Positions 16,911-51,312 of a stretch of DNA of 64,000 bases are shown here, in pieces (within the stretch, counting starts at the first letter, position 1; each line of letters starts with the position of its first letter). Location of the stretch: positions 59,570 through 123,569 of the forward strand of contig DATDPG010000019.1 in assembly GCA_035292885.1 (NCBI GenBank). Direction: 5' to 3'. Below the pieces are notes generated by a model. The model ran no database searches. It saw only the letters and a program-made list of their open reading frames with translations, and was not told the origin of the DNA. This stretch comes from Bdellovibrionota bacterium (GTDB lineage Bacteria > Bdellovibrionota_G > JALEGL01 > DATDPG01). Made by a program: the position numbers and the translations under genes.

Positions 16911-16939
16911 GGCGGAGCGGACAGGAGACCTGAAACGAC

Positions 16940-20131: not shown

Positions 20132-20132
20132 C

Positions 20133-21715: not shown

Positions 21716-21719
21716 TGCG

Positions 21720-22931
21720 ATGAACGGGCGGATTCCGATGGCCGTGTTCACCGTCGTTTTGGGCGCATCCTTCATGCTCGGCGGCTTCGCTCGGAGTGAG
21801 GAGGAGAATTGGCTTCCATCGGAGCCGCTCAAGGGGCGAGTTGTCTTCGAGCAAAAGCACTGCCCGCAGTGCCATTCGATCGGAGGCGCGAAAGGCGGGG
21901 TCGGTCCCGATTTAGCCGAAGCGGGAACGTATTTTCACGGGAGCTTTCTCCAGCTCTCATCCATTTTATGGAACCACATTCCGGACATGCTGGTGGAATA
22001 CAAAACGCGAAATCTTTCTTGGCCGAGTTTCTCCGAGGACGAGGTCGGCTATCTGATTTCCTATCTGTACTATCTGCGATACTTGGGAAGCCCGGGCGAT
22101 GTCGCCAACGGCCAGCGCCTCCTCCAGACGAAAGGGTGCGTCGCCTGTCATGCCGTCGGGAAACAAAAAAAGGCGGGGGACGCGCCTCCGCTGGATCAGC
22201 TCAAGAAATATGTTTCGCCGCTCTACCTGGTGCAGGCGGTTTGGAATCACGGGCCCCGGATGCAGCGGATGATCGAACAAAAGGGAATCAAGCGGCCGAC
22301 ATTCGACGGTCAGGAAATCAGCGACATGAGCGCGTACATCCGCAACGTAAGCCGCTGGAACACCGAGGAGAAAGTGTATCTCTCCCCGGGCGATCCGAAG
22401 AACGGAGAACGGGTGTTTGAAAGCAAGGGGTGCGTCAAGTGTCACTCCGAACAAAGGGGGAGGAAGCGGGCGCCGTCGCTGGAGAAGTCGAGCCTGAATG
22501 AGAGCGCGGCGGGCATCGCGGCGCTGATGTGGAACCATGCGGATGTCATGATGAGTTCGATGAAAGAGGAGAAAATCAGCTGGCCGACGTTCGAAGGGCG
22601 CGAGATGCCCGATCTGGTCGCATACCTGTTCTTTCTGGATTTTCTGGAACCGCCGGGAAACGCCGCAAAGGGCAAGGAGCTATTCGGCCAGAAACAATGT
22701 TCCTACTGTCATTCGATCCACGGAGCCGGGGGTACCATCGGACCCGATCTCGCGGTCGTCGGTTCTCTTTCCTCCACCCGGTCGATCCTCCGGATGATGG
22801 TGAATCACGCGGAAAACATGTCGGAAGCCGTCCTGGGCGCCGGGAAAGCCTGGCCGGTTCTGGGCGGTGACGAGATGAATAACATCTTCGCGTACTTAAA
22901 AAGCGTCGAACGGAAAGAAAAAAAGAAATAG
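21720..22931 (+). CDS. tetraheme cytochrome c built of four class-I cytochrome c domains
   Basis: Signal peptide. Four CxxCH motifs, each followed by GPDL and a distal MWNH motif (candidate Met ligand). RBS ggaaagg. Paralog of the gene at 37130..38365. Confidence 0.75.
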   Translation: MNGRIPMAVFTVVLGASFMLGGFARSEEENWLPSEPLKGRVVFEQKHCPQCHSIGGAKGGVGPDLAEAGTYFHGSFLQLSSILWNHIPDMLVEYKTRNLSWPSFSEDEVGYLISYLYYLRYLGSPGDVANGQRLLQTKGCVACHAVGKQKKAGDAPPLDQLKKYVSPLYLVQAVWNHGPRMQRMIEQKGIKRPTFDGQEISDMSAYIRNVSRWNTEEKVYLSPGDPKNGERVFESKGCVKCHSEQRGRKRAPSLEKSSLNESAAGIAALMWNHADVMMSSMKEEKISWPTFEGREMPDLVAYLFFLDFLEPPGNAAKGKELFGQKQCSYCHSIHGAGGTIGPDLAVVGSLSSTRSILRMMVNHAENMSEAVLGAGKAWPVLGGDEMNNIFAYLKSVERKEKKK

Positions 22932-30269: not shown

Positions 30270-31850
30270 CTACGCCGCCTCGGCGAAGTCGACCGGCTGG
30301 CGATGAAGCGACCACCACTCCCTCGCCTGATTCTGCGTCCAGAGTCTGTTGGGTTCACAGGTTTCAAGCGCACCGAGGAACTCGTCCATATTTTGAAAGC
30401 GATCTTCGGGCTTCTTGGCCAGACACCGAAGAACGAACCGGTCCAACGCTTCGGGAATGGCGATCTCGGAGAGTTCGGAAGGTGGTTTAGGGTCGGTCTT
30501 GGCGTGATCGACGAGAAGCTCGACGTTGGACGACGCGGCAAAAAGCGGCTGTCCCGTGAGCAACCAGAAGGTCACCGCTCCCAGATTATAGATATCGGCA
30601 CGATGATCCACTTTCGATGAGCCGTACACCATCTCCGGCGCGATGTACCGAGGGGTCCCGAAAATCACTCCGGTCTTCGTCAAGTGGGAGGCTCCGTCAA
30701 TTTTCATCTCTTTGGCCAGACCGAAATCCAGAACCTTTACGAAATCGTAAATGCCACCCCGTTCCGTCAGAAAAATATTCGCCGGCTTGATATCGCGGTG
30801 AATGATGTCCTTGTTGTGAGCTTCACCGAGCGAGCCGGCGACCTGACGGAGAATATGAATGGTACGAGCGGCCGGCAGGGGACCGTATTTCTCGACGATC
30901 TCCTGAAGGTTTAGGCCGTCCAGGAACTCCATCACGTAAAAAAATTTGTTGTCGTCCGTCCGTCCGAAATCATAAATTGAAATCGTATTGGGATGACTGA
31001 GTGTCGAGGCCAGTTGAACCTCCCGTTCGAAACGTTGGATCGCCGCTCCGGAATCGTCGTCGCCCGGCACAAGCATCTTTAATGCGGTCGGCCGGTGCAT
31101 CATGGCGTGATGGGCGATATAGACCTTTCCCATGCCGCCGCTCCCGATCTCTTTTTCCAGGATGTAATTGCCGACTTGCTTCGCTTGATGGAGGTCCTTT
31201 CGCATGTTGTAAAGCGTCTTTGTGACCAGAGCCGAGACAAGACCATATATCGCGATTTGAATCGCTTGCGCCGGTGTGGCTCCGACCATCGCGTCGTATC
31301 CTCCACGCGTCTCCCAAAAGGTTTGGACGGAAGGGAACCAGAGATAGGACAAGAATCGCATGACGACGAAACCGAGTGTTGCCCAAACGCCCATGCTGAT
31401 CTGGCAACTCAAGAGACAGGGAACAAATGCCGCGTGTACGAAAAGTATCAATGAAATCGGAAAAAGTGGAGCCTCGGCCGGAAATGCGATGGCCCCAACC
31501 CACGTAGCCAGCAAAAGGTTGAAATGGAATACAACGTTATCGATCGTGCGGAGGGTCCCCGCTCGCCAATCCTTCAAGGAACGTAGAAAAAGCAGTGCTC
31601 CGGCAAAAGAAGCGGCATGAATCCATTTGGAAATCAGAACCCAATTCGGCGCGATCACACTTTCCCATTGAACCGGGCCCCACAAGTATTTTGTAATAAC
31701 CCAGCCGATCACACTGAGCGTCAGGCCCAAATAGGAGACGAGAATCAGGCGCTGATGAAGAAGCCCGCACCTCTCCTTCTGAAACGAGTCGCTCGTCTGG
31801 GCGGGCGACGGTTCCTTTTTCTTACAGCAAAGGGGCATCGTGATCGGCAT
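30270..31850 (-). CDS. Ser/Thr protein kinase with N-terminal polytopic membrane domain (paralog of 26428..28017)
   Basis: Same architecture and extensive identity with the other kinase (GSGGMGKVY, HRDIKPANIFL, DFGLAKE, GTPRYIAPE, and an AQAREWW C-terminus shared by both). Confidence 0.8.
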   Translation of the reverse strand: MPITMPLCCKKKEPSPAQTSDSFQKERCGLLHQRLILVSYLGLTLSVIGWVITKYLWGPVQWESVIAPNWVLISKWIHAASFAGALLFLRSLKDWRAGTLRTIDNVVFHFNLLLATWVGAIAFPAEAPLFPISLILFVHAAFVPCLLSCQISMGVWATLGFVVMRFLSYLWFPSVQTFWETRGGYDAMVGATPAQAIQIAIYGLVSALVTKTLYNMRKDLHQAKQVGNYILEKEIGSGGMGKVYIAHHAMMHRPTALKMLVPGDDDSGAAIQRFEREVQLASTLSHPNTISIYDFGRTDDNKFFYVMEFLDGLNLQEIVEKYGPLPAARTIHILRQVAGSLGEAHNKDIIHRDIKPANIFLTERGGIYDFVKVLDFGLAKEMKIDGASHLTKTGVIFGTPRYIAPEMVYGSSKVDHRADIYNLGAVTFWLLTGQPLFAASSNVELLVDHAKTDPKPPSELSEIAIPEALDRFVLRCLAKKPEDRFQNMDEFLGALETCEPNRLWTQNQAREWWSLHRQPVDFAEAA

Positions 31851-37129: not shown

Positions 37130-38365
37130 CTACGGTAAGTGCTTCGCATTCGGACTCGCCGGAGCCAGGCTCGTCAGAAACGCATAGAGATCCGCCATCT
37201 CCCGGCCCGTCAGTTTGGGCCACTTCAAGTGTTGCTCGGTATGCTTCTCTTGCATCTCGGTGGAGTGGTTCCACATCGCCGCGACCATGCCCATGGGGGA
37301 GTTCAATTTGCTGATGGCGGCGAAATCTTTCGCCGCGTTTCGTCCCTTGCCGTTTAAGGAGTGGCACGTCAGGCATTCTCGGTCCCTAACGAGATTCTCC
37401 CCTGTGGCGGGGCTCCCCGGTGCGTCCTCCAGTTTCATGCTGTAGAGATACGCGATGACGTGCGCCATCTCCCCCTCCTTGAAATCCGGGAACGTGAGTT
37501 TCTTTTCTTTCATCATCTCCCACATGGCGGGGCCGTGATTCCACATCTTGGCCGCGATCTCGGTCACGGGATAGTTGAAATCGACCTCAGCGAAATCGGG
37601 CGCCGTGGTTGGTGGTTTGGCACGGAACGAATGGCAATGCATGCACCCTTTTTCGGTCAAGAGTTCCTTCCCCTTTGAGGGATCGCCGAGGTCATAGTCG
37701 CTGGCCGGGAAGACGGTCGGGGCCATATACGAACGGATTCCGGCGGCCAGGGCGTCCATCTCGTCCTCTTCGATGACGGGCCGATCGATCTTGTACTTCT
37801 CAAAAAGCGCCAGCATTTTCGGGCCATGGTTCCACATCGCTTCCGCCAGTCGGATGGGGGAGATGTATTCCTTTTTCGCGCTGATGTCGGGAGCGATTCG
37901 GGCGCCTTCCCCTCCAAATTGATGACAAGAGAAGCATCCCTTTTCCTTCAGCACCTTTCTTCCCATCGATTCCCTCACCGGTTCCGCCATGTACCGGATG
38001 AAAGAGAGATAGCGAACCAGCTCGGACATCTCCTTCGGCGTGAACTTCGGAAAGGCATACCCTTTGGTCTCGATCTTCTTCGCCATTCTCGGAAGGTGAT
38101 TCCACATGACGGAAGAAAGCTCGAGGTATGTACCGTAAAACTTGCGGTTGCCCAGGTCGGGACCGCCGCGGCCCCCCCTCCCGTACACGGAATGGCACTG
38201 CGCGCATCCCTTCTGATGGAAGACTTCCCGACCCGGCCACGGTGAGGCCGAAGTGGCTGCTTCCTGCGCCCGAAGGGCGAAAATGGAGCCGGATGACATC
38301 AGGAGATACGCGAGAATGAATTGCAGGAGGCGGATGCAGTTTCTCCGGGTAGTGGACATAGTCAC
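37130..38365 (-). CDS. tetraheme cytochrome c of four class-I domains (paralog of 21720..22931)
   Basis: Signal peptide. Four CxxCH motifs, each with a GPD and a downstream MWNH motif. Confidence 0.75.
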   Translation of the reverse strand: MTMSTTRRNCIRLLQFILAYLLMSSGSIFALRAQEAATSASPWPGREVFHQKGCAQCHSVYGRGGRGGPDLGNRKFYGTYLELSSVMWNHLPRMAKKIETKGYAFPKFTPKEMSELVRYLSFIRYMAEPVRESMGRKVLKEKGCFSCHQFGGEGARIAPDISAKKEYISPIRLAEAMWNHGPKMLALFEKYKIDRPVIEEDEMDALAAGIRSYMAPTVFPASDYDLGDPSKGKELLTEKGCMHCHSFRAKPPTTAPDFAEVDFNYPVTEIAAKMWNHGPAMWEMMKEKKLTFPDFKEGEMAHVIAYLYSMKLEDAPGSPATGENLVRDRECLTCHSLNGKGRNAAKDFAAISKLNSPMGMVAAMWNHSTEMQEKHTEQHLKWPKLTGREMADLYAFLTSLAPASPNAKHLP

Positions 38366-38828: not shown

Positions 38829-39257
38829 TCATTCTTTGAAGGGATTGAGGATTCGCAAGTCCTCTACGTGAAAACCATGCTGCAGGTCTTCGGTATAGAG
38901 CGCGTCACAATTCGAGGCCAGTGCCTGAGCCACAATGGCCGCATCCCAGAAAGACCAGCGATAACGATGCCGAAGGCGACACGCGTGGACGAAGATTTCC
39001 TGAGTTGTCACGACCGGGTCCCATGAAAAGTAACTACGACAGACATCGACGGCATCCTCGAAGGAAAGAGGTTTCGGGATCTTGGTCGCGACCGTGACGA
39101 GAAATTCCTGCAACACCTGCAGGCTCGTCGCAGCCGATTGGTTTTCCCAATGGGCCTTTACGAGATCCGAAGATCGATTTGATTTACCGGAATCACTTCG
39201 ATCATACGCATAGACGAGAATATTCGTGTCAAAGAAAGCGCGCCTATTTTCGGACAT
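38829..39257 (-). CDS. vapC: PIN-domain toxin (VapC)
   Basis: FFDTNILVY N-terminus and conserved acidic residues of the PIN fold. 142 aa. Confidence 0.7.
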   Translation of the reverse strand: MSENRRAFFDTNILVYAYDRSDSGKSNRSSDLVKAHWENQSAATSLQVLQEFLVTVATKIPKPLSFEDAVDVCRSYFSWDPVVTTQEIFVHACRLRHRYRWSFWDAAIVAQALASNCDALYTEDLQHGFHVEDLRILNPFKE

Positions 39258-39489
39258 GCAGGGCGTCCCTCGACCAGGTCACCTTTCCCACTTCATACAG
39301 GCCCTTCGCCATTCTTCGCATTTCCTTGCGAAACGCACGTTGATGAAGCGATTTCCGCGAAATGAGTTCGTGGGCGTATTTGGCAAGAAGCCTGGAGACA
39401 GACTGGTTGGCTTCGGCCGCGGCGATTCGGAGCTTTCGCAACAACGGGCGGGGGAGGGTCAACGTGATGTTTTCGAGATCTCTCTTCAT
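39244..39489 (-). CDS. vapB: ribbon-helix-helix antitoxin (VapB/CopG-like)
   Basis: MKRDLENITLTLPRPLLRKLRIAAAEANQSVSRLL RHH pattern. Overlaps the vapC start. Confidence 0.55.
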   Translation of the reverse strand: MKRDLENITLTLPRPLLRKLRIAAAEANQSVSRLLAKYAHELISRKSLHQRAFRKEMRRMAKGLYEVGKVTWSRDALHVRK

Positions 39490-39551: not shown

Positions 39552-40793
39552 TTACTTGCGCGGCGGAGGAAGCGAACGGATTTTGAGAGCCAGAGCGATG
39601 ACCAACAACGTGAGGAATATTGTGCTGATTCCGAGGCCGACTCGGCGGGTTTTGTTTTCGCGGAGAGCGGCTTTCCCCAAAGCGATGGCTTGATCCACAG
39701 CTTTTCGTCCCTCCGTGATCTTCGCCTCCACCCCCGGCATGGAAAAGGAGTGAATCTCGGTTCGTGCCTGAATCAACGCCTGCCGGGCATTTTGCATGCT
39801 GTCCTCGGCTTCGGTGACGTCCATTCCCTTGTCCCTCGCTTCTTCGATAATCTTCGAAGCTTCGGCCGAATAATTCTTCAAAGAGCCGATCATCTTGGAG
39901 AACGCCATGGCCACGGCGGCGCCTTTATCCCCCTCTTTGTGGCACTTGGCGCAGATCGCGCCTTGCTGCGTCCCGATCCGGTCATCTGAGATGTGAACGA
40001 TCAGATGATTGCCGTGGCAGGAAATGCATTCGCCGTAGGGATCCTTCTGCAGGGCTTTCGCCATGGGACTCTTGAGAAACAGCTCGGCGTTGTGGACGTG
40101 GCAGGAGCCGCAAATATGGGCGATGGATTTCAGTCCCGGCGGTGTGGCGCCGTGGTTGCCGTGACAATCGTTGCAGGCGGGAGCGCCCCGGACATCTCCT
40201 TTTTCAAGCAGAGCTTTCCCATGCACACTTTTCGCGTACTCGGCATAGACGGTCGTCGAGATCTTGTACGGCTTCATATATTCGGGGTCGGCGTGGCAAT
40301 GGGCGCACATCGTCGGCAGGTTCACCGCGTAAACCGGAGACTTCGCGTCGTTGACTTTCCGGATGTTGTGCACGCTGTGGCAGCTGACGCATTCGGCGAC
40401 TTTGGTGTCCCCCTGTTTCAGTTTCTTGCCGTGCTGGCTGGTCAGGTAGAGCTCATACTGATCGACCCGAAGCATCGGGTTGTATTTCTTCATGAAGACC
40501 GGGTTGCTGTGGCATTTCGCGCAAAGTTTCGGAATGTCCGCCCTCTTCGGCGCCCCTTTGAAGCCTTTCTTCGGGTCCATTGAGATATCTTGGTCGTCCG
40601 AGGTCGGATCTCCGCCGTGGCATTCGTTGCACCCGATTCCCGCCGTGGCGTGCACGTCATCCTTCCAGCGGGTGGAGGGCTCATCTTCCATCGACTGATG
40701 GCAGATAAGGCATTGGCCGCCGGGCAGCGCAGCAGCTTCTTCGGCGTATGCCGACGAAAGTACGTTCAGCAGAATGAATAAAATCCAACTCAT
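39552..40793 (-). CDS. membrane-anchored nonaheme c-type cytochrome (cytochrome c subunit of bc-type complex)
   Basis: Signal MSWILFILLNVLSSAYA. Nine CxxCH motifs. C-terminal TM helix (GLGISTIFLTLLVIALAL). The start overlaps the cytochrome b stop. Confidence 0.75.
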   Translation of the reverse strand: MSWILFILLNVLSSAYAEEAAALPGGQCLICHQSMEDEPSTRWKDDVHATAGIGCNECHGGDPTSDDQDISMDPKKGFKGAPKRADIPKLCAKCHSNPVFMKKYNPMLRVDQYELYLTSQHGKKLKQGDTKVAECVSCHSVHNIRKVNDAKSPVYAVNLPTMCAHCHADPEYMKPYKISTTVYAEYAKSVHGKALLEKGDVRGAPACNDCHGNHGATPPGLKSIAHICGSCHVHNAELFLKSPMAKALQKDPYGECISCHGNHLIVHISDDRIGTQQGAICAKCHKEGDKGAAVAMAFSKMIGSLKNYSAEASKIIEEARDKGMDVTEAEDSMQNARQALIQARTEIHSFSMPGVEAKITEGRKAVDQAIALGKAALRENKTRRVGLGISTIFLTLLVIALALKIRSLPPPRK

Positions 40794-41881
40794 GCGAGTA
40801 CGTGTCCGGCGATGGTCATTCCTATAAAAAAAAGCAATAGCGCCATCCCGATGCCGCGGAGAATCTTTGTGGTCGATTTCTTTTTTCCGCAGTCGATCCA
40901 TGGAATAAGCAGCCAAAACACGCCGATCCCGCCGAAGATCATGTGTCCGACCAGCTCCCCGTCAATCGGCCCCACCTTGGCGGGCAAGAACTTGAGCGTC
41001 TGGAACATGAAAAGGAAATACCACTCCGGTTTGATTCCGGCCGGGGCGGAGGCGAAAGGATCGGCTTTCCTTCCCAGTTCCCAGGGGAAGAAGACCGCCA
41101 GGATCGCCAAAATATCGAGAATGATAAACCAAAGTAAAACGTCCCGGAGAAAGAAGTGCGGGAAAAACGGGATACTCTTCCGGTTTTCCGGGTGGCGTTT
41201 CCAATCTTCGGGCTCGTGCATTCCCTGGATCTGCACGAACAGCAAATGAATACCCAGAACGGAAGTGAAGATCGCCGGGAGGAGGGCGACATGCAAAGCG
41301 AAGAAGCGGGTCAGCGTAGAGCCGGTGACTTCTTCTCCGCCGCGGAGAACATGCATGAGGGTTTTCCCGATGTACGGCACGACGCCGATCATGTCGGTGC
41401 CGACCTTGGTGGCGAAGAAGGAAAGTTCGTTCCACGGCAGCAGGTAACCCGAAAACCCGAACGTCATGACGATTCCCAGAAGGGCGAGCCCCGTGACCCA
41501 GCTGAGTTCGCGGGGTTTCCTGTAAGCTCCCATGAAAAAGACGCTGAACATGTGGATGATGACGGCCAGGACCATCAAATTGGCCGACCAGCTGTGGATC
41601 GACCGGATCAGCCAGCCGAAAGGCACTTTCGATGTGATAAATTGAACGCTCTCGAAGGCCGCGTCGGCGCTCGCCTTGTAATAGAACATCAGGAGAATGC
41701 CGGTGGAGAGTTGGACGATGAAGAGAAAGAGGGAAACTCCGCCGAAGTAATACCAGATCGCGGTCTTTCCCATCGGCACTTCTTTGTGCCGCCCCCACTC
41801 AATCAGCTGTGCGATGGGATATCGGTCGGACAGCCATTCGATCGCGAGAGCGGCCCTACGCTTTAAGTGAGATGTAAACAT
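40790..41881 (-). CDS. cytochrome b (fused b6/subunit IV type)
   Basis: Conserved His-containing helices (WSANLMVLAVIIHMF, FFALHVALLPA). PEWYFL motif. Confidence 0.8.
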   Translation of the reverse strand: MFTSHLKRRAALAIEWLSDRYPIAQLIEWGRHKEVPMGKTAIWYYFGGVSLFLFIVQLSTGILLMFYYKASADAAFESVQFITSKVPFGWLIRSIHSWSANLMVLAVIIHMFSVFFMGAYRKPRELSWVTGLALLGIVMTFGFSGYLLPWNELSFFATKVGTDMIGVVPYIGKTLMHVLRGGEEVTGSTLTRFFALHVALLPAIFTSVLGIHLLFVQIQGMHEPEDWKRHPENRKSIPFFPHFFLRDVLLWFIILDILAILAVFFPWELGRKADPFASAPAGIKPEWYFLFMFQTLKFLPAKVGPIDGELVGHMIFGGIGVFWLLIPWIDCGKKKSTTKILRGIGMALLLFFIGMTIAGHVLA

Positions 41882-42308
41882 CTTCTCCCTGAACGTGGAC
41901 TTCGTACGTGTCGAGCGGGTGAGGCGGCGGGCCGGCCACATTGTTTCCGTTCAAATCGTATTGACCGTTGTGACAAGCGCACCAAATGCGCTCCATGTCG
42001 GGCCGGTACTGGACGATGCAGTCGAGGTGCGTGCATTTTCCCGTGAACGCGGCGAAACTGCCGTCCTTCTTGCGGACCAGCAGCGCCGGTTTGTTTCCGA
42101 ACTTGCAGATTTTCCCGCTGTTCGGGGGAATCTCGGAGACCGCAGCGACTTTCGCCGAAGAGACTTTGGCTTCGGTCTCCGCGACAGGAGTGAGGTAGCG
42201 AACGATCGGATAAAAGACGGACCCCACCCAGGCGAAACCGCTGGCCCCTAAAAGGGTGTTCAAGAATCCGCGTCGGGAGGTTTCGGTCGAGCTTCGAATC
42301 GGTTTCAT
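41856..42308 (-). CDS. Rieske [2Fe-2S] protein, TAT-exported
   Basis: SRRGFLNTLLGA twin-arginine signal. CTHLDC and CACHNGQY Rieske boxes. Confidence 0.85.
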   Translation of the reverse strand: MKPIRSSTETSRRGFLNTLLGASGFAWVGSVFYPIVRYLTPVAETEAKVSSAKVAAVSEIPPNSGKICKFGNKPALLVRKKDGSFAAFTGKCTHLDCIVQYRPDMERIWCACHNGQYDLNGNNVAGPPPHPLDTYEVHVQGEDVYISLKA

Positions 42309-42596: not shown

Positions 42597-43094
42597 TTAG
42601 GCACTTTCTTGCCCTGTAAGTTTTCTCAATTCCGCTGCGTCGAAAAGGTCCTTGTCTCTGCCGGCTCTGTCCTTCATTTCAATCAGGTCCATTTTGCCGA
42701 TCACTCTAATTTTAATTCCAAAGGCATCGACCAACAATTGCCTGCCCGCAAGTTCCTGAAATGGCTTGGGTTCTTGTGAAAAGACATCGATGACTTCAAA
42801 TGGATTTCCCGGGTGAATGAAAGAGAAAACCATCATTCCCTTTTCCTCTATCCATTCTTTGCGTTTATGCGCATCGGCGAAATCTTTTGCATCAACCGGC
42901 AGGCGGGGCTTGAAACCAAGATGCGAGACCATTTCTACAAATGCCAGGACATTTTTGCGCTCAAGGTGCACGATGAGATCAAGATCCACGGTCGCTCGTT
43001 GGACCTGATGAAAATTCACGGCGAATCCGCCTGCGACGAGATACTCGATTTTTCTTCGGTCAAGCTCAATGAAAAGTTCTTTGTACGGAACCAT
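42597..43094 (-). CDS. nucleotidyltransferase-fold protein (uncharacterised), inserted inside respiratory gene cluster
   Basis: YLVAGGFAVNFHQVQRATVDLDLIV NTase-type motif. 165 aa. Confidence 0.4.
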   Translation of the reverse strand: MVPYKELFIELDRRKIEYLVAGGFAVNFHQVQRATVDLDLIVHLERKNVLAFVEMVSHLGFKPRLPVDAKDFADAHKRKEWIEEKGMMVFSFIHPGNPFEVIDVFSQEPKPFQELAGRQLLVDAFGIKIRVIGKMDLIEMKDRAGRDKDLFDAAELRKLTGQESA

Positions 43095-43236: not shown

Positions 43237-45168
43237 TTAAGGGTTGGGGCGATCGAGTTCGCGCGGATGATCCCGTTCCATTTCATGGCGGGTCACTTTG
43301 CCCGTGAGCCACGTTACGTTCATCGGATATTCATCCGGATGGAATATCACGAAGAAGAGGTGCCACACGAGAATGGCCAGCGTCGCCAGCCACGCCTCAA
43401 AATAGTGAATCAACTCCGCCAGCGGGATGCCCCAAACGGGAAGGAATCTTGAAAACAGTTCTGGAAACCAGAGCGCAAAGCCCGTGACCGACATCACGAT
43501 CGTTCCCCAAATGAGCGCCCAATATTCCGCCTTGTGAATGTACGTGTACCGGCCGAGCTTCGGTGCCGTGGCTGCGCGCGCCCGGACGAGTTTAACGTAA
43601 TAAAAGATGTTGGCCGATAAATCCCGGACATCCGTGAGACGCGGAAGAAGCTCCCGAATCTCCTTTCGGCCCTGACGTGTGAAGATCGAATGGAAAATGT
43701 GAAGGACTCCCGCGCTTAACATGATCACCGCGCTGGTACGATGGATGACGCCGCGAGCGTGTTCACCCAAATGAACCCAATCCAAAATCACCGTCCAGCC
43801 GGCGCGAGAAAAATGAAGCGCGAAGCCGGTGATGACAAGCGTCGTAAAGCTCACCAGGAGCAGGCCGTGAGCCACGAGCTGAATCGTTGTGAATCGGGTG
43901 TAGACGACTTCTTCCCGGTGTGAGCGGATCTTTTTCACGACGGCCGCTGCATAAATGAGCAAGTTATGAAGAAGCATCAGGCCGATCGTGCTGACAATCA
44001 TCCAGAGATAGAGAATGCGAACCCAGTAGAGAATGGGGCTGGCTGTCGGAGAGGTGTCCAAGTGCACGGGAACGCGGCTGAACGCCTGCGTTGCATCGGG
44101 GTGGCACTTGCCGCAGGTCTTGGCCAGGTTGTCCGGATGAATCGAGGAGCGGGTATCGGAAGAGGGGAGAATCCGGTGCGTTTCATGGCAGCTGGAACAG
44201 TTTGCGACGGTGACCGAGCCGCGCCGGACGGCCATGCCATGATAACTCTGCATGTACGTTGAAAGCCGTTGAATTGAAAATCCGTATCGCTGGGCCAGAG
44301 TAAGATCGGAATGACAGTGGCCGCACGTCTTCGTTGTCAGCTGTGCAGGCGACACAGGCGATTCAGGCGATTTCGTGTCGACGATGGCGTGTTCGCCGTG
44401 GCAGTCCGTGCAGGCGGGGGCGTCCGTAATCCCGCGAGCGACGGCCTGTCCGTGCACGGAGACCTTATAATCTTCTAAGATATCGCTGTGGCATCTTCCA
44501 CATGTTGCGGGAATTTGTTTCTTCGAAACCGCGGACATCATTTCACGTCCCGGCTGGATCGTGTGATAGCCGTGACAGTCGGTACAGACGGCGGCTTTCA
44601 GATTACCAGCCGCAATGGCACGACCGTGGACGCTGTTTTTATACGCGCCGACAGGGTCGGACACGGGGATGTCGTATTTCTTGGCGAGTTTGATGTCGGC
44701 GTGACACTTGGCGCACAAAGCGGGGACGTTGGCTTTGCTGTGTCTCGCGGTTTCGCTGGTGAACGGCTGAATCAAATGCGCGTCGCCGTGGCAATCGACA
44801 CAAGAAGGCGCATCTGAAATCCCATTGTTCTTTGCAGTGCCGTGCGTGCTGCCGCGGTACTCCTTTTCGGCATCTTCATGACAGCTTCCGCAATTTACTT
44901 TTTGTGGAGCTTCCTCATGCTCGCCGAAGGGCCCGCCGGCGTGGCAGTCGGTGCAGGCTAGTTCGCCGTGGACGGAAGCCTTGAAAACTTTGGGATCCAC
45001 GACGTCATGGCAATCAACACACTTTTTCGGATCGATTCGGTTCGCGGCAAAAACCGACGAAATCGCAAACATTGCGCAGCCGACGAATGCCAAGCCCGAT
45101 TTTGTAAAGGGAACCCCGGTCGGTTTCAAAAATTGGACACTCATCCGATGAAAACGCCCGCCAAGCAT
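43237..45168 (-). CDS. 11-heme c-type cytochrome fused to a C-terminal b-type di-heme membrane domain (CbcL-like quinol oxidoreductase)
   Basis: Eleven CxxCH motifs in the N-terminal 380 aa. C-terminal 260 aa with about 5 TM helices and conserved His (HydC/FdnI-like). A possible alternative start at 45144 (MSVQFLK) gives a signal peptide. Confidence 0.75.
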   Translation of the reverse strand: MLGGRFHRMSVQFLKPTGVPFTKSGLAFVGCAMFAISSVFAANRIDPKKCVDCHDVVDPKVFKASVHGELACTDCHAGGPFGEHEEAPQKVNCGSCHEDAEKEYRGSTHGTAKNNGISDAPSCVDCHGDAHLIQPFTSETARHSKANVPALCAKCHADIKLAKKYDIPVSDPVGAYKNSVHGRAIAAGNLKAAVCTDCHGYHTIQPGREMMSAVSKKQIPATCGRCHSDILEDYKVSVHGQAVARGITDAPACTDCHGEHAIVDTKSPESPVSPAQLTTKTCGHCHSDLTLAQRYGFSIQRLSTYMQSYHGMAVRRGSVTVANCSSCHETHRILPSSDTRSSIHPDNLAKTCGKCHPDATQAFSRVPVHLDTSPTASPILYWVRILYLWMIVSTIGLMLLHNLLIYAAAVVKKIRSHREEVVYTRFTTIQLVAHGLLLVSFTTLVITGFALHFSRAGWTVILDWVHLGEHARGVIHRTSAVIMLSAGVLHIFHSIFTRQGRKEIRELLPRLTDVRDLSANIFYYVKLVRARAATAPKLGRYTYIHKAEYWALIWGTIVMSVTGFALWFPELFSRFLPVWGIPLAELIHYFEAWLATLAILVWHLFFVIFHPDEYPMNVTWLTGKVTRHEMERDHPRELDRPNP

Positions 45169-45719: not shown

Positions 45720-48700
45720 TTAACGCAACGTCGCGTTCGGAACCGCCACGCCGGTGATTACCTTATACGTCCCTTGGAGGACGCCGACCTCGTATCCGGC
45801 GTTATGGACGCCCATGCTGCCGTCTCGAACCACCAGATTGTGGTTCCAGATCGCCCGGCGGATCTTGTCGGATCGGGCCCACTTGAAGGCCCCGCCGGCG
45901 GGATAGACGCTAACGCCGGGGTTGCAGTCCGCGGCGTTCGTGCAGGCCGTAGTAAGGTCGTTGTCGCACTTGCCGGCAATGTACGCCCCGCACGTGCTGA
46001 GGCACTTGTCGTGCGTCGGCGTCGGATCCAAAGGATCGACCGTACCACACGAGATGGTCGTATCTTCTTTGCACCGGTTCTTGCTCGAACCCGAGGTATT
46101 GCACGGACGCGCATCCGCGCCTGCACCGTTGAAGTTCGAGTAACCCAGAGCGTCCGGAACGATGCAGTCGTTGTCCGTGGAACACTCGATCTCATCCGTA
46201 CTCCCGGCGGTGGACCTCGGTTTTGCGATGGTGCACTTGTTGGTCGCAGTGACACAGGGGCCGAAGTACATCGTCCCCGTCGTCGCAATTTTGCAGTCCT
46301 CGTCCTTGGAGCAACTATAGGCCGAACGTTGATCACACTTTCCGGCTGTGATCGTCCCGCACGGTCCGTAGTTCGTCGCTGATACGGTCGTCACATTCAC
46401 CTTCTTCAGGTTGCATCCGGCATCCGAAGTGCAGAATTGAGCGTCGGCCACAATCGTAGTACTTGCTGCCGAGCAAGTCTTGACCGCGTCGCAACTCGTG
46501 TCACCAGCCGCCGTGCAACTGATGTAGGGCGCCAGCGTACACTTCTTGTTTGCGTTGCAGTCACCCGCGTCCAGTGTAGTGACACTGCACGTTCCCAGGT
46601 TCACGTCGTCGTACGCTTTGATGGCGTCCGACAAGAGGAGCGCAAGCCCCGTGACTTCGTCCTGGATCCCCTCGATCGTCCCATCGCCGTCGTAATCGCC
46701 GCGAGCCTCACGGTTAATCTCCGTGAGATCCGTGTGACATGGCGTGCACGCGCTGATGTTCGCGAGCTCACCCGCTTCACCGGCTACGGTCTCCTCTTCC
46801 TCGGCACCGACTAGATGGCCGACGCCGTGACCGCTCATAATGTTGAAAGAGTGACCGCCCAAGTGGCGGAACCCATCCTCCGTCGCATCCGGCCCCTCGG
46901 CCATGTGGCACGTGAGGCACTTCCGGTTCTCCGTCGGCAATGTCGGGTCACCCGAAACATCCGCCAGAATAAATCCCGGCTCGGAATGGAACGAATTCCC
47001 CGTTGTGAAGACATCGTCGATTCCGTTTTTGTCGAGGTCGAGAAGAGCCCCCTTTCCTTCGAGAACGGGAGCCTGCGGATTGTAGTGGACCTGTCGCGTG
47101 TAATAGTCCGCGTTTTGCTCCAACGTCTCGCAGAGCGTATCTGAAACGCCGTCGCGATTCGTGTCGCACGAAAACTCTCCGAAACTGTAGAGGCCGTCGT
47201 GGCACTTGTAACAAACGGCCGCCTTCCCGGCATCCACTGTCGATTCGTCGATGATCATCTCGAGCTCTCCGTGCATTCGAAGCTGGTCCTCGTTTGTCGC
47301 GTCGTGCGGGTCATGACACCCAGCGCACCCGATACCGACGAAAGCCTCCTGTTCCGTGATCGGCGTGAGGGCTTCCTCGCCCCCCTCCACATAATTGATG
47401 AAGCCCTTGGAGGTATGGCAGCGTGTACAGGCTGCGTTCGTGAGCCATGAAACCTGATAGCTGGCGGAGCCGTGCGAGACGCCGGTCATGTTGTGCGAGG
47501 AGTTGATCCATTCGGCCTCTTGCGTATGACACTGGCCGCAGATACCGGTCTGAGAAGCGGAGACACCGATCTTCGTGGCGTCGCCGTTGTGTCCCGAACC
47601 CGGGCCATGGCAATTCTCACACTGAACACCGCTTAGAGCGGCCACGGAAGGCGCATCCGCCAAGAAATCGGCGTATGTGCCCGGCTGGGTGGAAACGTCA
47701 AAGCCGGTCGAGGCCACGGCCTCGTCAAATCCGCCGTTTGCGGCGGACGTATTGTAACCGACCGTTTCAAAGCCCCACAGATAGGGCTCGGGTGCCAGCG
47801 ATGACATGGCCAGATACGAATTTTCGTAGAGCTTTGAGTGATTTGTTCCCTGCCACTCGCCGACTTTGTCCGGCATCGCCGAACCGTCATGGCATCCGGC
47901 GCACTCGGGCCTCGCCGCGTCGCCGGTGATACTTCCGATGCCTACATACGTCCCGGCATACATCCGGAACGAACCCACGATCGTGCAATGATCCACGCCG
48001 CCGTCCGAGGTGTATTTACAATTGGGCGCGACACGGCCGCACGCCCGTACACCATCCGCATCGGGTCCCACAGCCGATTCATCGACCGTCGCCGTGTAGG
48101 CCACCGTGTAATACCCCTCGACATCCGGCGTGAACTTGGGGAGCTGAAGCGCTGAGGCTACGGTTCCGGAATCGGCAAAAACGGCTGCAGATCCATCCGG
48201 GGGTGTCAGCGTCCAAGACCAGTCATCGTTGATGGGCTTGGCGCGCCTCGTGGTCGGCGTGCTCGTCGAAGGCAACGAACCGTTACACGCTGTCGAAGTG
48301 GATGTGTACTCCAATATGACCGAACTGTTCGGTCCCTGCAGGTAGAGGGGAACATTCAGCGGAACGGTCCAAAGACCGCTCGACCGCTGAATCTCGGCAC
48401 CGGCGTCCTGAACATAGACCACCTGTGTCGTGCTGTCGCTGTTCCCGGCACCGTCGTCCACCGTCAACCTGAAATAGAGTTTCGTATCTTCGATCGAAAC
48501 AGGGAGCGGTTGCCACTTGTACTCATCACTTTGTCCGCCGTGCGCGGCGTTCTCCTCAGCTTCCCTCAAACCGACGGTCAGAAAATCCTTAAGCGCGGGA
48601 GCGGTGAACGGAAGAGTTGAGGACGTGCTCCCGGCCGTCGCGGTCGCGAAGGGGCCGGAGACCTGCTGCCAGCTGTAGTTCACGACACTTCCGCGGCTGT

Positions 48701-49163
48701 TTTCGCCGGAGAGAATTCCACCCGCGTCTTCCAAATCGATGGCCAGTTCATCCGTTCCGAATCGTGTGCGTGTGGTGATGGTGGAACCGGAACCGTTCGT
48801 GATGACCGCAAGAATCGTCTTGGCCGTGACGCTGACCGTGTCGGTGCTTTCGGCATCGTGGAGAGAGAGTTTCAACACGTACGTGCCGGCCGCGTCCGCG
48901 ACAAAGCTGGTCGCGATTTCGGAACCGCCCGTCAGAGCGGCGGAAGAACCGTCGGGTTTCGATTCAAGCGTCCATATAATATTGCCGACGACCGTGCTTC
49001 CGGAACCGTCCAAATTCACGGTGTCGCCGATCAGGACCTTCTGGTCCTCGCCTGCGTTAGCGGCGGCGGTCCCTTCCGGATCGTCGTCGCATGCCGAAAC
49101 ACTGATCGCCACGGCGGCAGCCGCGAGAAGATTGATCATCCAAAGTCCCTTCGTGCTTTTCAT
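45720..49163 (-). CDS. 1147-aa cell-surface multiheme (8 CxxCH) lipoprotein cytochrome with PKD/Ig-like N-terminal domains and Cys-rich C-terminal region (OmcB-like position)
   Basis: RBS gagggagag. Signal with lipobox ISVSAC. Eight CxxCH motifs between roughly residues 420 and 830. C-terminal region with dozens of Cys. Last gene of the porin-cytochrome operon. Confidence 0.7.
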   Translation of the reverse strand: MKSTKGLWMINLLAAAAVAISVSACDDDPEGTAAANAGEDQKVLIGDTVNLDGSGSTVVGNIIWTLESKPDGSSAALTGGSEIATSFVADAAGTYVLKLSLHDAESTDTVSVTAKTILAVITNGSGSTITTRTRFGTDELAIDLEDAGGILSGENSRGSVVNYSWQQVSGPFATATAGSTSSTLPFTAPALKDFLTVGLREAEENAAHGGQSDEYKWQPLPVSIEDTKLYFRLTVDDGAGNSDSTTQVVYVQDAGAEIQRSSGLWTVPLNVPLYLQGPNSSVILEYTSTSTACNGSLPSTSTPTTRRAKPINDDWSWTLTPPDGSAAVFADSGTVASALQLPKFTPDVEGYYTVAYTATVDESAVGPDADGVRACGRVAPNCKYTSDGGVDHCTIVGSFRMYAGTYVGIGSITGDAARPECAGCHDGSAMPDKVGEWQGTNHSKLYENSYLAMSSLAPEPYLWGFETVGYNTSAANGGFDEAVASTGFDVSTQPGTYADFLADAPSVAALSGVQCENCHGPGSGHNGDATKIGVSASQTGICGQCHTQEAEWINSSHNMTGVSHGSASYQVSWLTNAACTRCHTSKGFINYVEGGEEALTPITEQEAFVGIGCAGCHDPHDATNEDQLRMHGELEMIIDESTVDAGKAAVCYKCHDGLYSFGEFSCDTNRDGVSDTLCETLEQNADYYTRQVHYNPQAPVLEGKGALLDLDKNGIDDVFTTGNSFHSEPGFILADVSGDPTLPTENRKCLTCHMAEGPDATEDGFRHLGGHSFNIMSGHGVGHLVGAEEEETVAGEAGELANISACTPCHTDLTEINREARGDYDGDGTIEGIQDEVTGLALLLSDAIKAYDDVNLGTCSVTTLDAGDCNANKKCTLAPYISCTAAGDTSCDAVKTCSAASTTIVADAQFCTSDAGCNLKKVNVTTVSATNYGPCGTITAGKCDQRSAYSCSKDEDCKIATTGTMYFGPCVTATNKCTIAKPRSTAGSTDEIECSTDNDCIVPDALGYSNFNGAGADARPCNTSGSSKNRCKEDTTISCGTVDPLDPTPTHDKCLSTCGAYIAGKCDNDLTTACTNAADCNPGVSVYPAGGAFKWARSDKIRRAIWNHNLVVRDGSMGVHNAGYEVGVLQGTYKVITGVAVPNATLR

Positions 49164-49189
49164 GTTTTCTCTCCCTCTCATGAAAGTTC

Positions 49190-49849
49190 TTACTGCGTAT
49201 GACATATGATGCAAGCCTGTCCATTGTCCGGATGCCGAAGCGGCGTATGGCAGCCCCGGCAATCCGCGTTAGGTAGATGGTTGACGTTGCTCGGTCGCCT
49301 CGGCGTGGCCATGTGAGCCGAGCTCGTTTGGTGGCACACCACGCACCTCTGTGCCCCATACGATTCCAGCGGGTAATGACAGTTCAGGCAGTGCCGATTT
49401 TGGGACGCCCCGAACCCGGCCATGTGATCGATCGGCTTCGTTTCCATATGGCACCGCTGGCAGAAGTCGGTCCGGTGGCACGTCATGCACTGCGATCGGT
49501 CGAAGCCCACCTGGAGCGCATGGCCGCGGAGGCGGAAGAATTGGTTGTGATTCGCCGGCGGCGTGATCTGGTGGCATTCCGAGCAGCTGGACTGCGTGTG
49601 GCAGAGGTTGCAGCTGTTCTTCGTGTCGAACCTAAACCGCTGCACCAGCGCGCCGTGCTCATGCTTGAACGTCAAATCGTGCCAGGCCGGTTTCGTGTCT
49701 TTGGTCATCCCGCCTTCGTGACATTCCGAACAGTCGCTGTCTCGCGCAACATCCGGGTGCTCCCACGTTGTGCCTTCGTCGCACCCTTTGTTGCCGAGAA
49801 AAAATGGGACCGCGAGCATTATTGTTAAAACAGACAACGATCGTCTGAT
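49190..49849 (-). CDS. nonaheme periplasmic c-type cytochrome (OmaB-like; paralog of the heptaheme 13308..13937)
   Basis: Nine CxxCH motifs. Shares the SCxxCH..SSCxxCH and FCxRCH patterns with the heptaheme gene. The 5' end is uncertain because the ORF extension runs into the 119-bp palindrome. Confidence 0.7.
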   Translation of the reverse strand: MRRSLSVLTIMLAVPFFLGNKGCDEGTTWEHPDVARDSDCSECHEGGMTKDTKPAWHDLTFKHEHGALVQRFRFDTKNSCNLCHTQSSCSECHQITPPANHNQFFRLRGHALQVGFDRSQCMTCHRTDFCQRCHMETKPIDHMAGFGASQNRHCLNCHYPLESYGAQRCVVCHQTSSAHMATPRRPSNVNHLPNADCRGCHTPLRHPDNGQACIICHTQ

Positions 49850-49851
49850 GG

Positions 49852-49970
49852 GGTGCCAAGAAAATACGTTCGGGCTCCGGTCCCGACGGTACCCCCCAAG
49901 TCCATGCTCGAGACTGCGCGTGGACTTGGGTGTCCCCGTCGGGCCACCCGAACGTATTTTCTTGGCACCC
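49852..49970. repeat. 119-bp near-perfect palindrome between porin and nonaheme cytochrome genes
   Basis: Arms gggtgccaagaaaatacgttcggg (49852-49875) and cccgaacgtattttcttggcaccc (49947-49970) are exact reverse complements. Nested inner arms cccgacgg/ccgtcggg and aagtcca/tggactt. Starts 1 nt after the porin stop. Confidence 0.7.
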
Positions 49971-49971
49971 T

Positions 49972-51312
49972 TCAAAAGTTCCAAGCGACCCTCACATCCA
50001 ACGTATGGAAATTGTCCAGGTCACTGGTTTCAAATTCGTACCCGAGCCGCCCCTCAAAGTCTTTGAGAAACTTCACGGTTCCCCGCGCATAGTACGTTTG
50101 GACGTTGTCCGATTCGTTCCCGGCTAAAAGGTTATATCGATAGAGGTAGAAAGCTGTTCCGGCCGTCAGCCGCAGCTTCCGCTTCAACAGGTCTTGGGCG
50201 ATGGAGAAAGATGTCCCGTACGTATCGTTCTGAAGTTCGTTGTCCTGTCCCAAATAGTAATCGCCGGTTAACGAAAGGCTCATGCCGTCGAGCGGCCATT
50301 CGATCGTTGACCCCGTCAAAAAGAACCGCTGAAAACCGTGATTGAACGCACTGGCGACCTGCTCTTCAATCAAAATACGGAATGCATACCCCGCATCCAG
50401 GGCAAAATGCTCGCCGATCCCCTTCATCCCGGTGAAGGCCATTTCGTAATACGGTTTGTATTCCCCGGCGAACGAATACGGATCCAGATCGATCACGCGG
50501 ACACCGTACGACTCGAGGAGACTGAAGAAGTGAAACTGGAGAGAAAGGTTCTGTTCGATGAATCGGTACCGGGTGTCGAGGGCCAAGTCCCGGACTTGAT
50601 CCAAGAACGATGTAAACCTCGAGGAAATCATGAGCCCCGGCTGGGCGTCCCACCAAACGCTCAGGCCGAAGAGATCATCTTCGATGTCACCGACGTTCGC
50701 CCGGAAGCCGGTGAAGTCATCCTTCAAATGAACGTAATCGAAACGGGCCCGAACCACCTTGACCGGATCGATCTCAAACGCTCCGCCGGCGACAAAATCG
50801 CCGCTGTCGGAACCGGTTTCCGTTTCGTAGAAATGGACCGGAACGCCGCCGTACGACATCAGCTTGAACCCTTTGGCTTCCCGCCACTGAAGGGAGAGGC
50901 CGTCGAAGTACAGCGACTCGAATTCCTGCCGGAACTGCCGTCCCGCGCGAAGCCGATCGAATACGCCGAGGTTGTTGGCGTCGAGGTAGGCGTGGTAGAT
51001 CCGCCCCGCGGCGCCGGTGTTGAAGGAGTCGTACACGCCATTGAACGTGGAATCCGAACTGTCGCCGTCCAGGTCGAAAATCCCGCCGGCCTGCAGGGAA
51101 ACCGCCACGCGGTCGTTCAAAGGCTCGCCCATGTTGAGCGAAAGAAGCGTTTCAAGATCCTGATCGCTGGTATCGGCGGTGGCGCGCAGTTTGTAACGGG
51201 TGCTGATGGAACCGAAAATATTGGAGTCTTCCGCGATCGCCGCATCGCAATAGACATACGCCCCAAAAAGGAGAAGCGTACATCCCAACCGACGGCGGCG
51301 AGAGGCGAGCAT
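49972..51312 (-). CDS. outer-membrane beta-barrel protein, candidate porin of the second porin-cytochrome conduit
   Basis: Signal MLASRRRRLGCTLLLFGAYVYCDAAIA. 446 aa. Amphipathic beta pattern. C-terminal VRVAWNF. Confidence 0.55.
   Translation of the reverse strand: MLASRRRRLGCTLLLFGAYVYCDAAIAEDSNIFGSISTRYKLRATADTSDQDLETLLSLNMGEPLNDRVAVSLQAGGIFDLDGDSSDSTFNGVYDSFNTGAAGRIYHAYLDANNLGVFDRLRAGRQFRQEFESLYFDGLSLQWREAKGFKLMSYGGVPVHFYETETGSDSGDFVAGGAFEIDPVKVVRARFDYVHLKDDFTGFRANVGDIEDDLFGLSVWWDAQPGLMISSRFTSFLDQVRDLALDTRYRFIEQNLSLQFHFFSLLESYGVRVIDLDPYSFAGEYKPYYEMAFTGMKGIGEHFALDAGYAFRILIEEQVASAFNHGFQRFFLTGSTIEWPLDGMSLSLTGDYYLGQDNELQNDTYGTSFSIAQDLLKRKLRLTAGTAFYLYRYNLLAGNESDNVQTYYARGTVKFLKDFEGRLGYEFETSDLDNFHTLDVRVAWNF

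Follow-up and report, generated by a model that had tools for sequence, protein, structure and literature searches.

This work concerns a three-gene respiratory operon in a 64,000-nucleotide stretch of DNA, hereafter the window, from a Bdellovibrionota bacterium (GenBank assembly GCA_035292885.1, contig DATDPG010000019.1, positions 59,570 to 123,569), and in particular a c-type cytochrome with nine heme-binding motifs encoded by its third gene. The three open reading frames (ORFs) lie on the minus strand at 39552-42308, as placed by an original prediction made from the sequence of the window, and encode a Rieske [2Fe-2S] subunit of 150 amino acids (41856..42308; recognized from its ORF, Pfam match and motifs), a fused cytochrome b of 363 amino acids (40790..41881; Pfam, PDB sequence matches, motifs and hydropathy) and a nine-heme c-type cytochrome of 413 amino acids, the putative c-subunit (39552..40793; CXXCH motifs and an AlphaFold2 [AF2] model). 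Genes of these same lengths (150, 363 and 413 amino acids) have been called on public metagenome contigs carrying identical DNA. The cytochrome b gene starts with an ATG at 41881, and its first 26 nucleotides (41856..41881) are shared with the 3' end of the Rieske gene, as found both in the sequence and in the public gene calls; an ATG at 41941, which gives the longest ORF, was rejected as the start codon, as homologues and the public gene calls favour ATG 41881. The stop codon of cytochrome b and the start codon of the nine-heme gene overlap in turn within an ATGA (40790..40793), which points to translational coupling of these two genes. With overlaps of 26 nucleotides and of an ATGA, the nine-heme gene is not separate from the Rieske and cytochrome b genes. 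Promoter and terminator scans gave nothing above chance, save for a strong promoter-like site before an inserted antitoxin gene; the operon comprises the three genes, and its neighbours are toxin-antitoxin genes and further cytochromes.

The Rieske protein matches the Pfam Rieske family (E 7e-14), while its N-terminal anchor matches TM_PetC (E 8e-6) below the cutoff, and the nearest NCBIfam models, also below cutoff, are those of the b6f PetC types. A twin-arginine translocation (Tat) motif, SRRGFL, occupies residues 11-16 (beginning with S11) and is followed by a hydrophobic anchor stretch, and on these motifs the protein would be exported by the Tat system and held by its N-terminal helix. 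The RRxF signature is found in 60 of the 70 Rieske homologues of the module, i.e., of the corresponding gene set in other genomes (see below). Box I (CTHLDC, residues 92-97: C92-T-H94-L-D-C97) and box II (CACHNGQY, residues 110-117, with C110-A-C112-H113) are complete, all four ligands of the [2Fe-2S] cluster and both disulfide cysteines being kept, and across the module family the two boxes follow the signatures CTHL[D/E]C and C[A]CHNGx[Y/F]. In comparison with the canonical box II, CPCHGSxY, Gly115 replaces the potential-raising serine, whereas Tyr117 is retained. The serine hydrogen-bonding the cluster is present in canonical and anammox proteins (PMC12954380), and its loss lowers the Rieske potential by ~130 mV in yeast (cited in PMC12954380). 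Since the Rieske protein described here is without this hydrogen bond, its cluster, and with it the high-potential chain, probably works at a lower potential than in bc1, b6f or anammox complexes. A chain of lower potential would fit multiheme acceptors, and the serine-less Rieske protein suggests such an adjustment.

Cytochrome b unites in one polypeptide matches to Pfam Cytochrome_B (E 3e-52) and to Cytochrom_B_C, the subunit IV part (E 1e-9), and the corresponding PDB sequence matches are to cytochrome b6 (E 1e-53, residues 14-224) and to subunit IV (E 2e-6, residues 254-352). It has seven hydrophobic helices and two pairs of heme ligands, H96/H110, with 13 residues between them, and H197/H212, with 14, the latter being the b6-type spacing of helix D that is kept in 66 of the 74 cytochromes b of the module. 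The Qo motif PEWY is located at 285-288, in agreement with the PEWYFL that had been read from the sequence (residue 285), and it is present in the module cytochromes b wherever the alignment reaches that region. An attempt to deduce the quinone type from this motif was given up, as PEWY accompanies both menaquinone and ubiquinone systems and is uninformative in this respect (PMC4122944). No cysteine that could correspond to that of heme ci/cN was detected near the start of helix A (segment GGVSLFLFIVQ), the sole cysteine of the protein being C331. The Tat-type Rieske protein, the four heme-ligand histidines and PEWY are thus shared with both b6f and bc1 complexes, and the helix D spacing of 14 residues and the seven helices with b6f. 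However, in b6f complexes cytochrome b6 (four helices) and subunit IV (three helices) are separate proteins and not a single chain of 363 amino acids, the heme ci cysteine is present, and the c-type subunit is cytochrome f instead of a nine-heme protein; bc1 complexes differ in having an eight-helix cytochrome b and a monoheme cytochrome c1.

The protein encoded by the third gene starts with a Sec-type signal peptide (residues 1-17, 40743..40793, with an AYA/EE cut), reading MSWILFILLNVLSSAYA and followed by EE. The heme domain (residues 28-285, 39939..40712) carries CXXCH motifs at residues 28, 55, 91, 135, 163, 207, 228, 256 and 281, i.e., nine motifs against 0.04 expected from the composition of the protein, and no CXXCK motif was found in it. 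A di-heme module, CxxCH-x5-MKxY...SxHG...CxxCHxxH, is present in it twice. A helical stalk follows (residues 290-384, 39642..39926), supported by conservation and by AF2 secondary structure with a predicted local distance difference test score (pLDDT) of 91-98, which holds a conserved K322-G-M324 loop and the invariant H348. The C-terminal transmembrane anchor (residues 385-407, 39573..39641), recognized by hydropathy and as an AF2 helix, is preceded by an invariant RRxGL and includes a hydrophobic helix at 385-403 with a hydropathy of 2.53. In having a signal peptide, a periplasmic domain and a C-terminal anchor this third subunit is laid out like cytochromes c1 and f, to which it is unrelated; it differs from them in its fold and three-helix stalk (see below). 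No c1 domain was found among the ORFs scanned around the operon, and the nine-heme protein has no Pfam match to cytochrome f. The composition announced by the original prediction, namely a Rieske protein of the Tat type, a cytochrome b uniting b6 and subunit IV, and a C-anchored nine-heme cytochrome in the place of c1, has therefore been borne out.

The 413-amino-acid protein is identical to an NCBI entry of a Bdellovibrionota metagenome-assembled genome (MAG) and belongs to a large family. Relatives sharing 40-64% identity numbered more than 3,877 in a word-indexed search, and among 1.84 billion cluster representatives (clusters at 50% identity) a profile gave 5,690 matches at E<=1e-3, with 1,079 at E<=1e-30. 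Its Pfam matches are to several multiheme families and only generic, no model specific for the family exists in Pfam or NCBIfam, and the best match among solved structures searched by sequence is NrfB (E 8e-5). The few labelled relatives carry names such as 'cytochrome c3 family protein' or 'hypothetical', under which the whole family is at present annotated. In the literature, covered partially and without the subscription-journal reviews on Rieske/cytochrome b diversity, no paper on this subunit family was found, and the only relevant passing mention was that of Zixibacteria RBG-1 (see below). This large family without a name of its own merits one for annotation.

An alignment of 114 members comprises 48 proteins with nine CXXCH motifs (412-438 amino acids) and 66 with eleven (471-525 amino acids), and the two additional hemes of the longer form are accounted for by a third copy of the di-heme module. 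All nine CXXCH motifs are invariant in the 114 homologues, a hydrophobic C-terminal tail is found in every one of them (114/114) and an N-terminal hydrophobic segment in all those aligned. Seven histidines outside the motifs are also invariant (H48, H121, H142, H191, H214, H263 and H348), as is M173, whereas M101 and K322-G-M324 are nearly so. Counting alone thus gives seven histidines and two or three methionines as conserved ligand candidates for nine hemes, a tally that would fit, but does not prove, six-coordination of all of them.

The AF2 model of the nine-heme protein, built from the 114-sequence alignment (pLDDT 88.9, pTM 0.77), consists of a heme region (~26-285) and of long helices at 290-321, 327-349 and 352-407, the last of which runs unbroken into the membrane. 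The best Foldseek match of this model is the hydroxylamine oxidoreductase (HAO) of Kuenenia (TM-score 0.45), with sequence identities to proteins of the HAO/NrfA superfamily of only 10-17%. The shared heme-core fold with long C-terminal helices suggests that the subunit belongs, distantly, to the HAO/NrfA/ONR/OcwA group, from whose other members it differs in its membrane anchor and in being the third gene of a bc operon.

This predicted fold raises the question of whether the protein is a multiheme reductase like HAO or NrfA, with one five-coordinate heme, in which case the complex would be a proton-motive quinol:nitrite, quinol:hydroxylamine or quinol:sulfur-oxyanion oxidoreductase. Precedents exist in the HAO-like subunit of the anammox complex Kuste4569-4574 (PMC12954380) and in the epsilon-Hao of Caldithrix abyssi (Cabys_2556), whose gene adjoins Rieske/cytochrome b genes (PMC5317091). 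Nevertheless, we consider this very unlikely. CXXCK is lacking, there is no Pfam match to the NrfA family (PF02335), and conserved His/Met candidates are as many as the hemes, whose number moreover varies from 9 to 11. No nap, nir or nrf genes are found near the operon of the window or near the module in a Caldithrix MAG, and the neighbours are mostly other multiheme cytochromes, with no nitrogen- or sulfur-cycle genes nearby. OcwA, which forms with OmhA a 9-heme/11-heme pair in the HAO/NrfA group, demonstrates that the same fold can be used for plain electron transfer (PMC9250108).

A further argument comes from a CbcL-like quinol oxidoreductase of 643 amino acids encoded 930 bp upstream of the Rieske gene (43237..45168, minus strand; Pfam Ni_hydr_CYTB and multiheme families), in which a domain with 11 CXXCH motifs is joined to a membrane domain of the HydC/FdnI b-cytochrome type. 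The heme domains of this oxidoreductase and of the nine-heme protein are homologous (26% identity, E 1e-27), and in the CbcL of Geobacter all nine hemes are bis-histidine (bis-His) electron carriers (PMC9129911). The role of a pure wire fits this homology, the variation between 9 and 11 hemes and a ligand set of seven histidines and two methionines. Note also that the methionines of the [FY]MKxY motifs of the nine-heme family correspond to alanine in the CbcL-like paralogue; we speculate that they are candidate His/Met ligands raising the potential of the entry heme.

Relatives of the nine-heme protein are encoded in at least 580 species genomes (one genome per species was scanned), and the gene context was examined for the best 80 of these at least 580 loci. 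These 80 genomes are all metagenome-assembled and carry labels of Myxococcales/Polyangiales, Calditrichota, KSB1 and Ignavibacteria/Melioribacteraceae, of Acidobacteriota (Pyrinomonadaceae, Blastocatellia, Aminicenantes), Gemmatimonadota and Zixibacteria, and of Krumholzibacteriia, Rhodothermales and Marinimicrobia. Among the 72 testable loci, those in which the sequence extends 1.7 kb or more upstream, the Rieske, cytochrome b and multiheme genes are contiguous and in the same order in 63 (88%), representing at least 10 phylum-level labels; the triplet is rearranged or interrupted in six, and Rieske/cytochrome b genes are absent from three (L021, L036 and L040). The same triplet occurs on Ignavibacterium and Myxococcales contigs; Ignavibacterium album itself is without a Rieske/cytochrome b complex. 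As judged from these genome sequences, the operon type is widespread in uncultured bacteria.

Three cluster representatives carry cytochrome b followed by the multiheme family in one polypeptide. In P0248, which has PPWY instead of PEWY, the final helix of cytochrome b also serves as signal anchor for the heme domain, and the fusion is topologically coherent; so is P0182, where extra helices lie between the two parts. P0155 was rejected as a clean fusion, as its junction keeps a signal peptide after a run of lysines and may reflect a lost stop codon. Together, the overlapping genes, the conserved gene order and the fusions speak for the multiheme protein being a subunit of the Rieske/cytochrome b complex, and these same observations support the earlier suggestion that quinol oxidation is wired here to a multiheme chain. 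We therefore favour, with a probability of about 0.6, the view that the three genes encode one quinol-oxidising 'complex III' in which the nine-heme protein replaces cytochrome c1 or f and passes electrons to a network of periplasmic and outer-membrane cytochromes.

The nine-heme protein might instead be a free-standing, membrane-tethered hub, co-expressed with the complex and collecting electrons by collision, without being a stoichiometric subunit. Such a hub would serve several quinol oxidases, among which a complex resembling Qrc and alternative complex III (ACIII) would be the co-expressed one in other genomes. In L021, L036 and L040 a MopB-FeS-NrfD cluster of this type precedes a four-domain cytochrome c and the nine-heme gene (the MopB gene of L021 runs off the locus start). 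In some Ignavibacteria genomes the Qrc-like cluster stands directly before the nine-heme gene in place of Rieske/cytochrome b, and in L045 and L077 the two clusters lie side by side with the nine-heme gene next to both. The window also contains a Qrc/ACIII-like cluster, 15 kb away on the plus strand (16407-22931), which is composed of QrcA-like multiheme, QrcB-like molybdopterin, QrcC-like FeS and NrfD/DsrP-like membrane proteins and ends with a four-domain cytochrome c (21678-22931) that is 35% identical to its paralogue downstream of the bc operon. Against a mere hub speak the start/stop overlap with the cytochrome b gene, the contiguous synteny in 88% of the loci and the natural fusions to cytochrome b. 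In addition, the operon encodes no other c-type subunit that could take electrons from the Rieske head. For these reasons we regard a hub as highly improbable and retain the nine-heme protein as a putative subunit of the complex.

Possible electron acceptors of the proposed complex are encoded on both sides of the operon. Downstream lies the gene of a four-domain class-I cytochrome c, a probable partner (37130..38365, minus strand; four stretches matching Pfam Cytochrom_C and four CXXCH motifs), with a repeated MWNH motif. It is 37% identical over its full length (E 4e-106) to the protein encoded directly upstream of the L036 nine-heme homologue, and four-domain cytochromes c adjoin the nine-heme gene in 7 of the 80 genome loci. 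Upstream of the Rieske gene are found, in this order, a 165-amino-acid ORF, the CbcL-like gene, a monoheme class-I cytochrome c, an 8-heme lipoprotein, a 9-heme cytochrome and a barrel. In ~15 of the 80 genome loci a CbcL-like homologue is encoded at most 5 kb from the module, and 63 of the 80 have further ORFs with at least three CXXCH motifs, often with 8-23 hemes, within that distance; in Zixibacteria RBG-1 (see below) these include an ORF with 19 CXXCH motifs. The last three upstream genes form a porin-cytochrome-like triad (45720..51312, minus strand; AF2, Foldseek, heme counts and lipobox): an 8-heme lipoprotein with PKD domains (45720..49262; heme count, lipobox), a 9-heme small cytochrome (49190..49984; heme count) and a predicted outer-membrane beta-barrel of 446 amino acids (49972..51312) that has no Pfam family, for which AF2 predicts ~24 strands (pLDDT 86). 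Foldseek relates the barrel model to outer-membrane barrels of the AlgE and OprD types (E 1e-10), and the barrel and the two multiheme genes share the arrangement of a porin-cytochrome conduit. A specific likeness of the barrel to MtrB was not borne out, as its best matches are generic 18-strand barrels.

We infer for the complex the following assembly, electron path, direction of flow and final acceptor. Quinol would be oxidised at Qo, a site to which cytochrome b, with its PEWY motif, and the Rieske head both contribute. One electron would pass via hemes bL and bH to the Qi site in a proton-motive Q cycle, and the other would reduce the Rieske [2Fe-2S] cluster, whose mobile head would pass it to the membrane-proximal heme of the nine-heme subunit. 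The nine closely packed hemes may act as both a wire and a reservoir and would deliver electrons to the periplasmic four-domain class-I and monoheme cytochromes c. From these, electrons could flow through the barrel-plus-multiheme triad to an extracellular, or a high-potential periplasmic, acceptor; the extracellular acceptor is the least certain step.

Several points weigh against this scheme. For every member of the family we infer the assembly into one complex from sequence data, and the nine-heme proteins of L021, L036 and L040, which stand behind a Qrc/ACIII-like MopB-FeS-NrfD cluster without Rieske/cytochrome b, indicate that the family is not exclusive to the latter. The closest solved folds, on the basis of the model, appear to be those of enzymes (HAO, NrfA) and not of wires. 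As regards the last step, the modelled barrel resembles generic porin-like barrels and not specifically MtrB, and the barrel-multiheme triad is also found elsewhere without the bc operon: it is conserved in a Deltaproteobacteria MAG (L088, 10001-14807), where it adjoins ccm genes. Finally, typical bis-His hemes are far lower in potential than a Rieske cluster, and the first transfer, from the Rieske cluster to heme, could therefore be uphill unless some of the hemes are His/Met-ligated. How a Rieske cluster reduces a multiheme cytochrome is thus a bioenergetic question posed by this operon, for which the serine-less Rieske box and the conserved methionine pair missing from the CbcL-like paralogue provide two handles.

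The direction of electron flow is itself open to a different reading, since Rieske/cytochrome b complexes are reversible in principle. Electrons from Fe(II) or another external donor would then enter through the outer-membrane conduit and reach the nine-heme protein; one share would be driven uphill by proton-motive force to reduce quinone, as happens in acidophilic iron oxidisers, and the others would run downhill via the class-I cytochromes to a terminal oxidase. Both class-I cytochromes of the cluster, the monoheme c and the four-domain c, belong to a type that is usually His/Met-ligated and of high potential, which would suit such a path. Moreover, the family is present in Zixibacteria RBG-1, for whose MtrAB/PetAB/multiheme cluster iron oxidation has been favoured (PMC3903129). 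In the RBG-1 locus (L067), the multiheme gene adjoins Rieske/cytochrome b and is followed by a 5-CXXCH ORF and by a 926-amino-acid ORF with 19 CXXCH motifs; the published PetAB complex, which may correspond to the L067 locus, lies inside the MtrAB/multiheme cluster (PMC3903129). However, the window ORFs scanned include neither a terminal oxidase nor Cyc2, MtoA or any other known marker of iron oxidation, the CbcL-like neighbour is of a type known from metal reduction (PMC9129911, PMC6295460), and the serine-less Rieske protein suits an anaerobic chain of lower potential. Reverse operation of the complex is in our opinion unlikely, and quinol oxidation remains the direction that we prefer.

Rieske/cytochrome b cores associated with multiheme cytochromes are already known from Geobacter (PMC2825233, PMC5877670) and from anammox bacteria (PMC12954380), and the operon described here is an uncharacterised variant of this known arrangement. 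The original prediction had equated it with the arrangement of anammox and Geobacter Cbc-type complexes; this holds as an analogy in principle, whereas the make-up of the subunits differs from both. The Geobacter cluster GSU2930-2937 (ExtKLMNOPQS, 'Cbc6') similarly combines a Rieske protein and a b6-like cytochrome b with multiheme cytochromes, lacks c1 and adjoins an outer-membrane porin-like gene (PMC2825233, PMC5877670). Its cytochrome b is nevertheless split into ExtP (23 kDa) and ExtQ instead of being fused, and it has four separate cytochromes (with 5, 12 and 10 hemes, and ExtS), one of them a selenoprotein, where a single multiheme subunit is found here; the heme number of ExtS is given as 2 in PMC2825233 and as 4 in PMC5877670. 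The ExtP model is matched by the N-terminal half of the cytochrome b described here (E 5e-64); the score of 216 bits lies below the cutoff of 290, and no ExtM- or ExtN-named model is among the NCBIfam matches.

The anammox complexes Kuste4569-4574 and Kustd1480-1485 likewise have b6f-like cores in which anchored hexa- and octaheme cytochromes replace cytochrome f, and the likeness extends to the long helices of Kustd1485 and to the HAO-like protein of one of the complexes (PMC12954380). In contrast to the fused, cysteine-less cytochrome b described here, their b6 and subunit IV are split and contain heme cN, NAD(P) oxidoreductase subunits are present (PMC12954380) where no adjacent NAD(P) oxidoreductase gene is found here, and their serine-bearing Rieske proteins, at +303 and +335 mV (PMC12954380), contrast with the glycine at that position. 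A closer Geobacter link appears to be provided by CbcL, as the heme domain of the nine-heme protein is homologous to that of its CbcL-architecture neighbour, the comparison having been made with the window's own protein. This neighbour shares the architecture of Geobacter CbcL (PMC6295460), which feeds periplasmic cytochromes (PMC9129911, PMC6295460). Differently from CbcL, the nine-heme protein has no b-type membrane domain but a helical stalk with one anchor helix, and it is coupled to Rieske/cytochrome b.

More tentatively, the operon may represent a distinct and very widespread class of proton-motive complex III in which a stalked, membrane-anchored 9/11-heme protein of HAO/NrfA fold replaces c1/f and the Rieske protein (CACHNG) is of lower potential. 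That such complexes serve, in many uncultured phyla, as an energy-conserving gate in the inner membrane for extracellular or multiheme respiration is conceivable, if doubtful, and we would place only limited confidence in the idea that one plug-in heme module is common to Rieske/cytochrome b, to HydC/FdnI-type b cytochromes and to Qrc/ACIII-type NrfD proteins. Among inner-membrane quinol oxidases, surveys of extracellular electron transfer name CymA, ImcH, CbcL and similar proteins, and Rieske/cytochrome b complexes go unmentioned in a genomic survey of 2018 (PMC6295460). Were our reading true, the energy conserved per electron would be higher with a Q-cycle complex joined to a multiheme wire than with these simple dehydrogenases. 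Energy-yield estimates would then change for metal-respiring or metal-oxidising Acidobacteriota, Ignavibacteriota, Calditrichota and Zixibacteria, as well as for Myxococcota, Gemmatimonadota and Bdellovibrionota with such metabolisms.

We also would like to point out several additional features of these loci. A four-heme cytochrome of ~170-230 amino acids is often encoded directly after the nine- or eleven-heme gene in other genomes (for example L004 7569-8108, L014 4104-4685, L025 3943-4584 and L026 6468-6977), although not in this window. The L004 copy matches Pfam Cytochrome_C554, whereas the other copies were judged by size and CXXCH count alone. By analogy, this small protein may be a soluble partner of the nine-heme protein, recalling the HAO-c554 pair. 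In the window, the space between the nine-heme and four-domain cytochrome c genes is occupied by genes for a VapB-like antitoxin (39244-39489) and a PIN-domain VapC toxin (38829-39257), both on the minus strand, and an 83-amino-acid ORF lies between this pair and the four-domain cytochrome c gene. The promoter-like site of the antitoxin gene reads TTGACA-17-GATAAT (39524-39496) with 11 of 12 matches, and the toxin-antitoxin arrangement is repeated on the sister contigs L002 and L003. On the other side, the 165-amino-acid ORF between the CbcL-like and Rieske genes (42597-43094, minus strand) has no family match, and in the two sister contigs the same slot holds an 80-amino-acid gene on the opposite strand (L002 1292-1534; L003 2564-2806), which makes it a strain-variable slot inside the respiratory cluster.

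Farther away, the minus-strand gene at 28004-30256 encodes a membrane protein of 750 amino acids with a TLC ATP/ADP-transporter match (E 8e-17) and an MFS match; transporters of the TLC ATP/ADP type are typical of energy parasites, and their presence is notable for a Bdellovibrionota genome. Three eukaryote-type Ser/Thr kinases, one of them with a PilZ domain, are encoded at 6490-8175 (minus strand), 26428-28017 (plus strand) and 30270-31850 (minus strand). The window further contains genes for an NnrS-family protein (2357-3553, plus strand), a FeoB ferrous-iron transporter (10412-12463, minus strand) and a 2-hydroxyacyl-CoA dehydratase (HGD-D) gene pair (60707-63141, plus strand) that adjoins enoyl-CoA hydratases.

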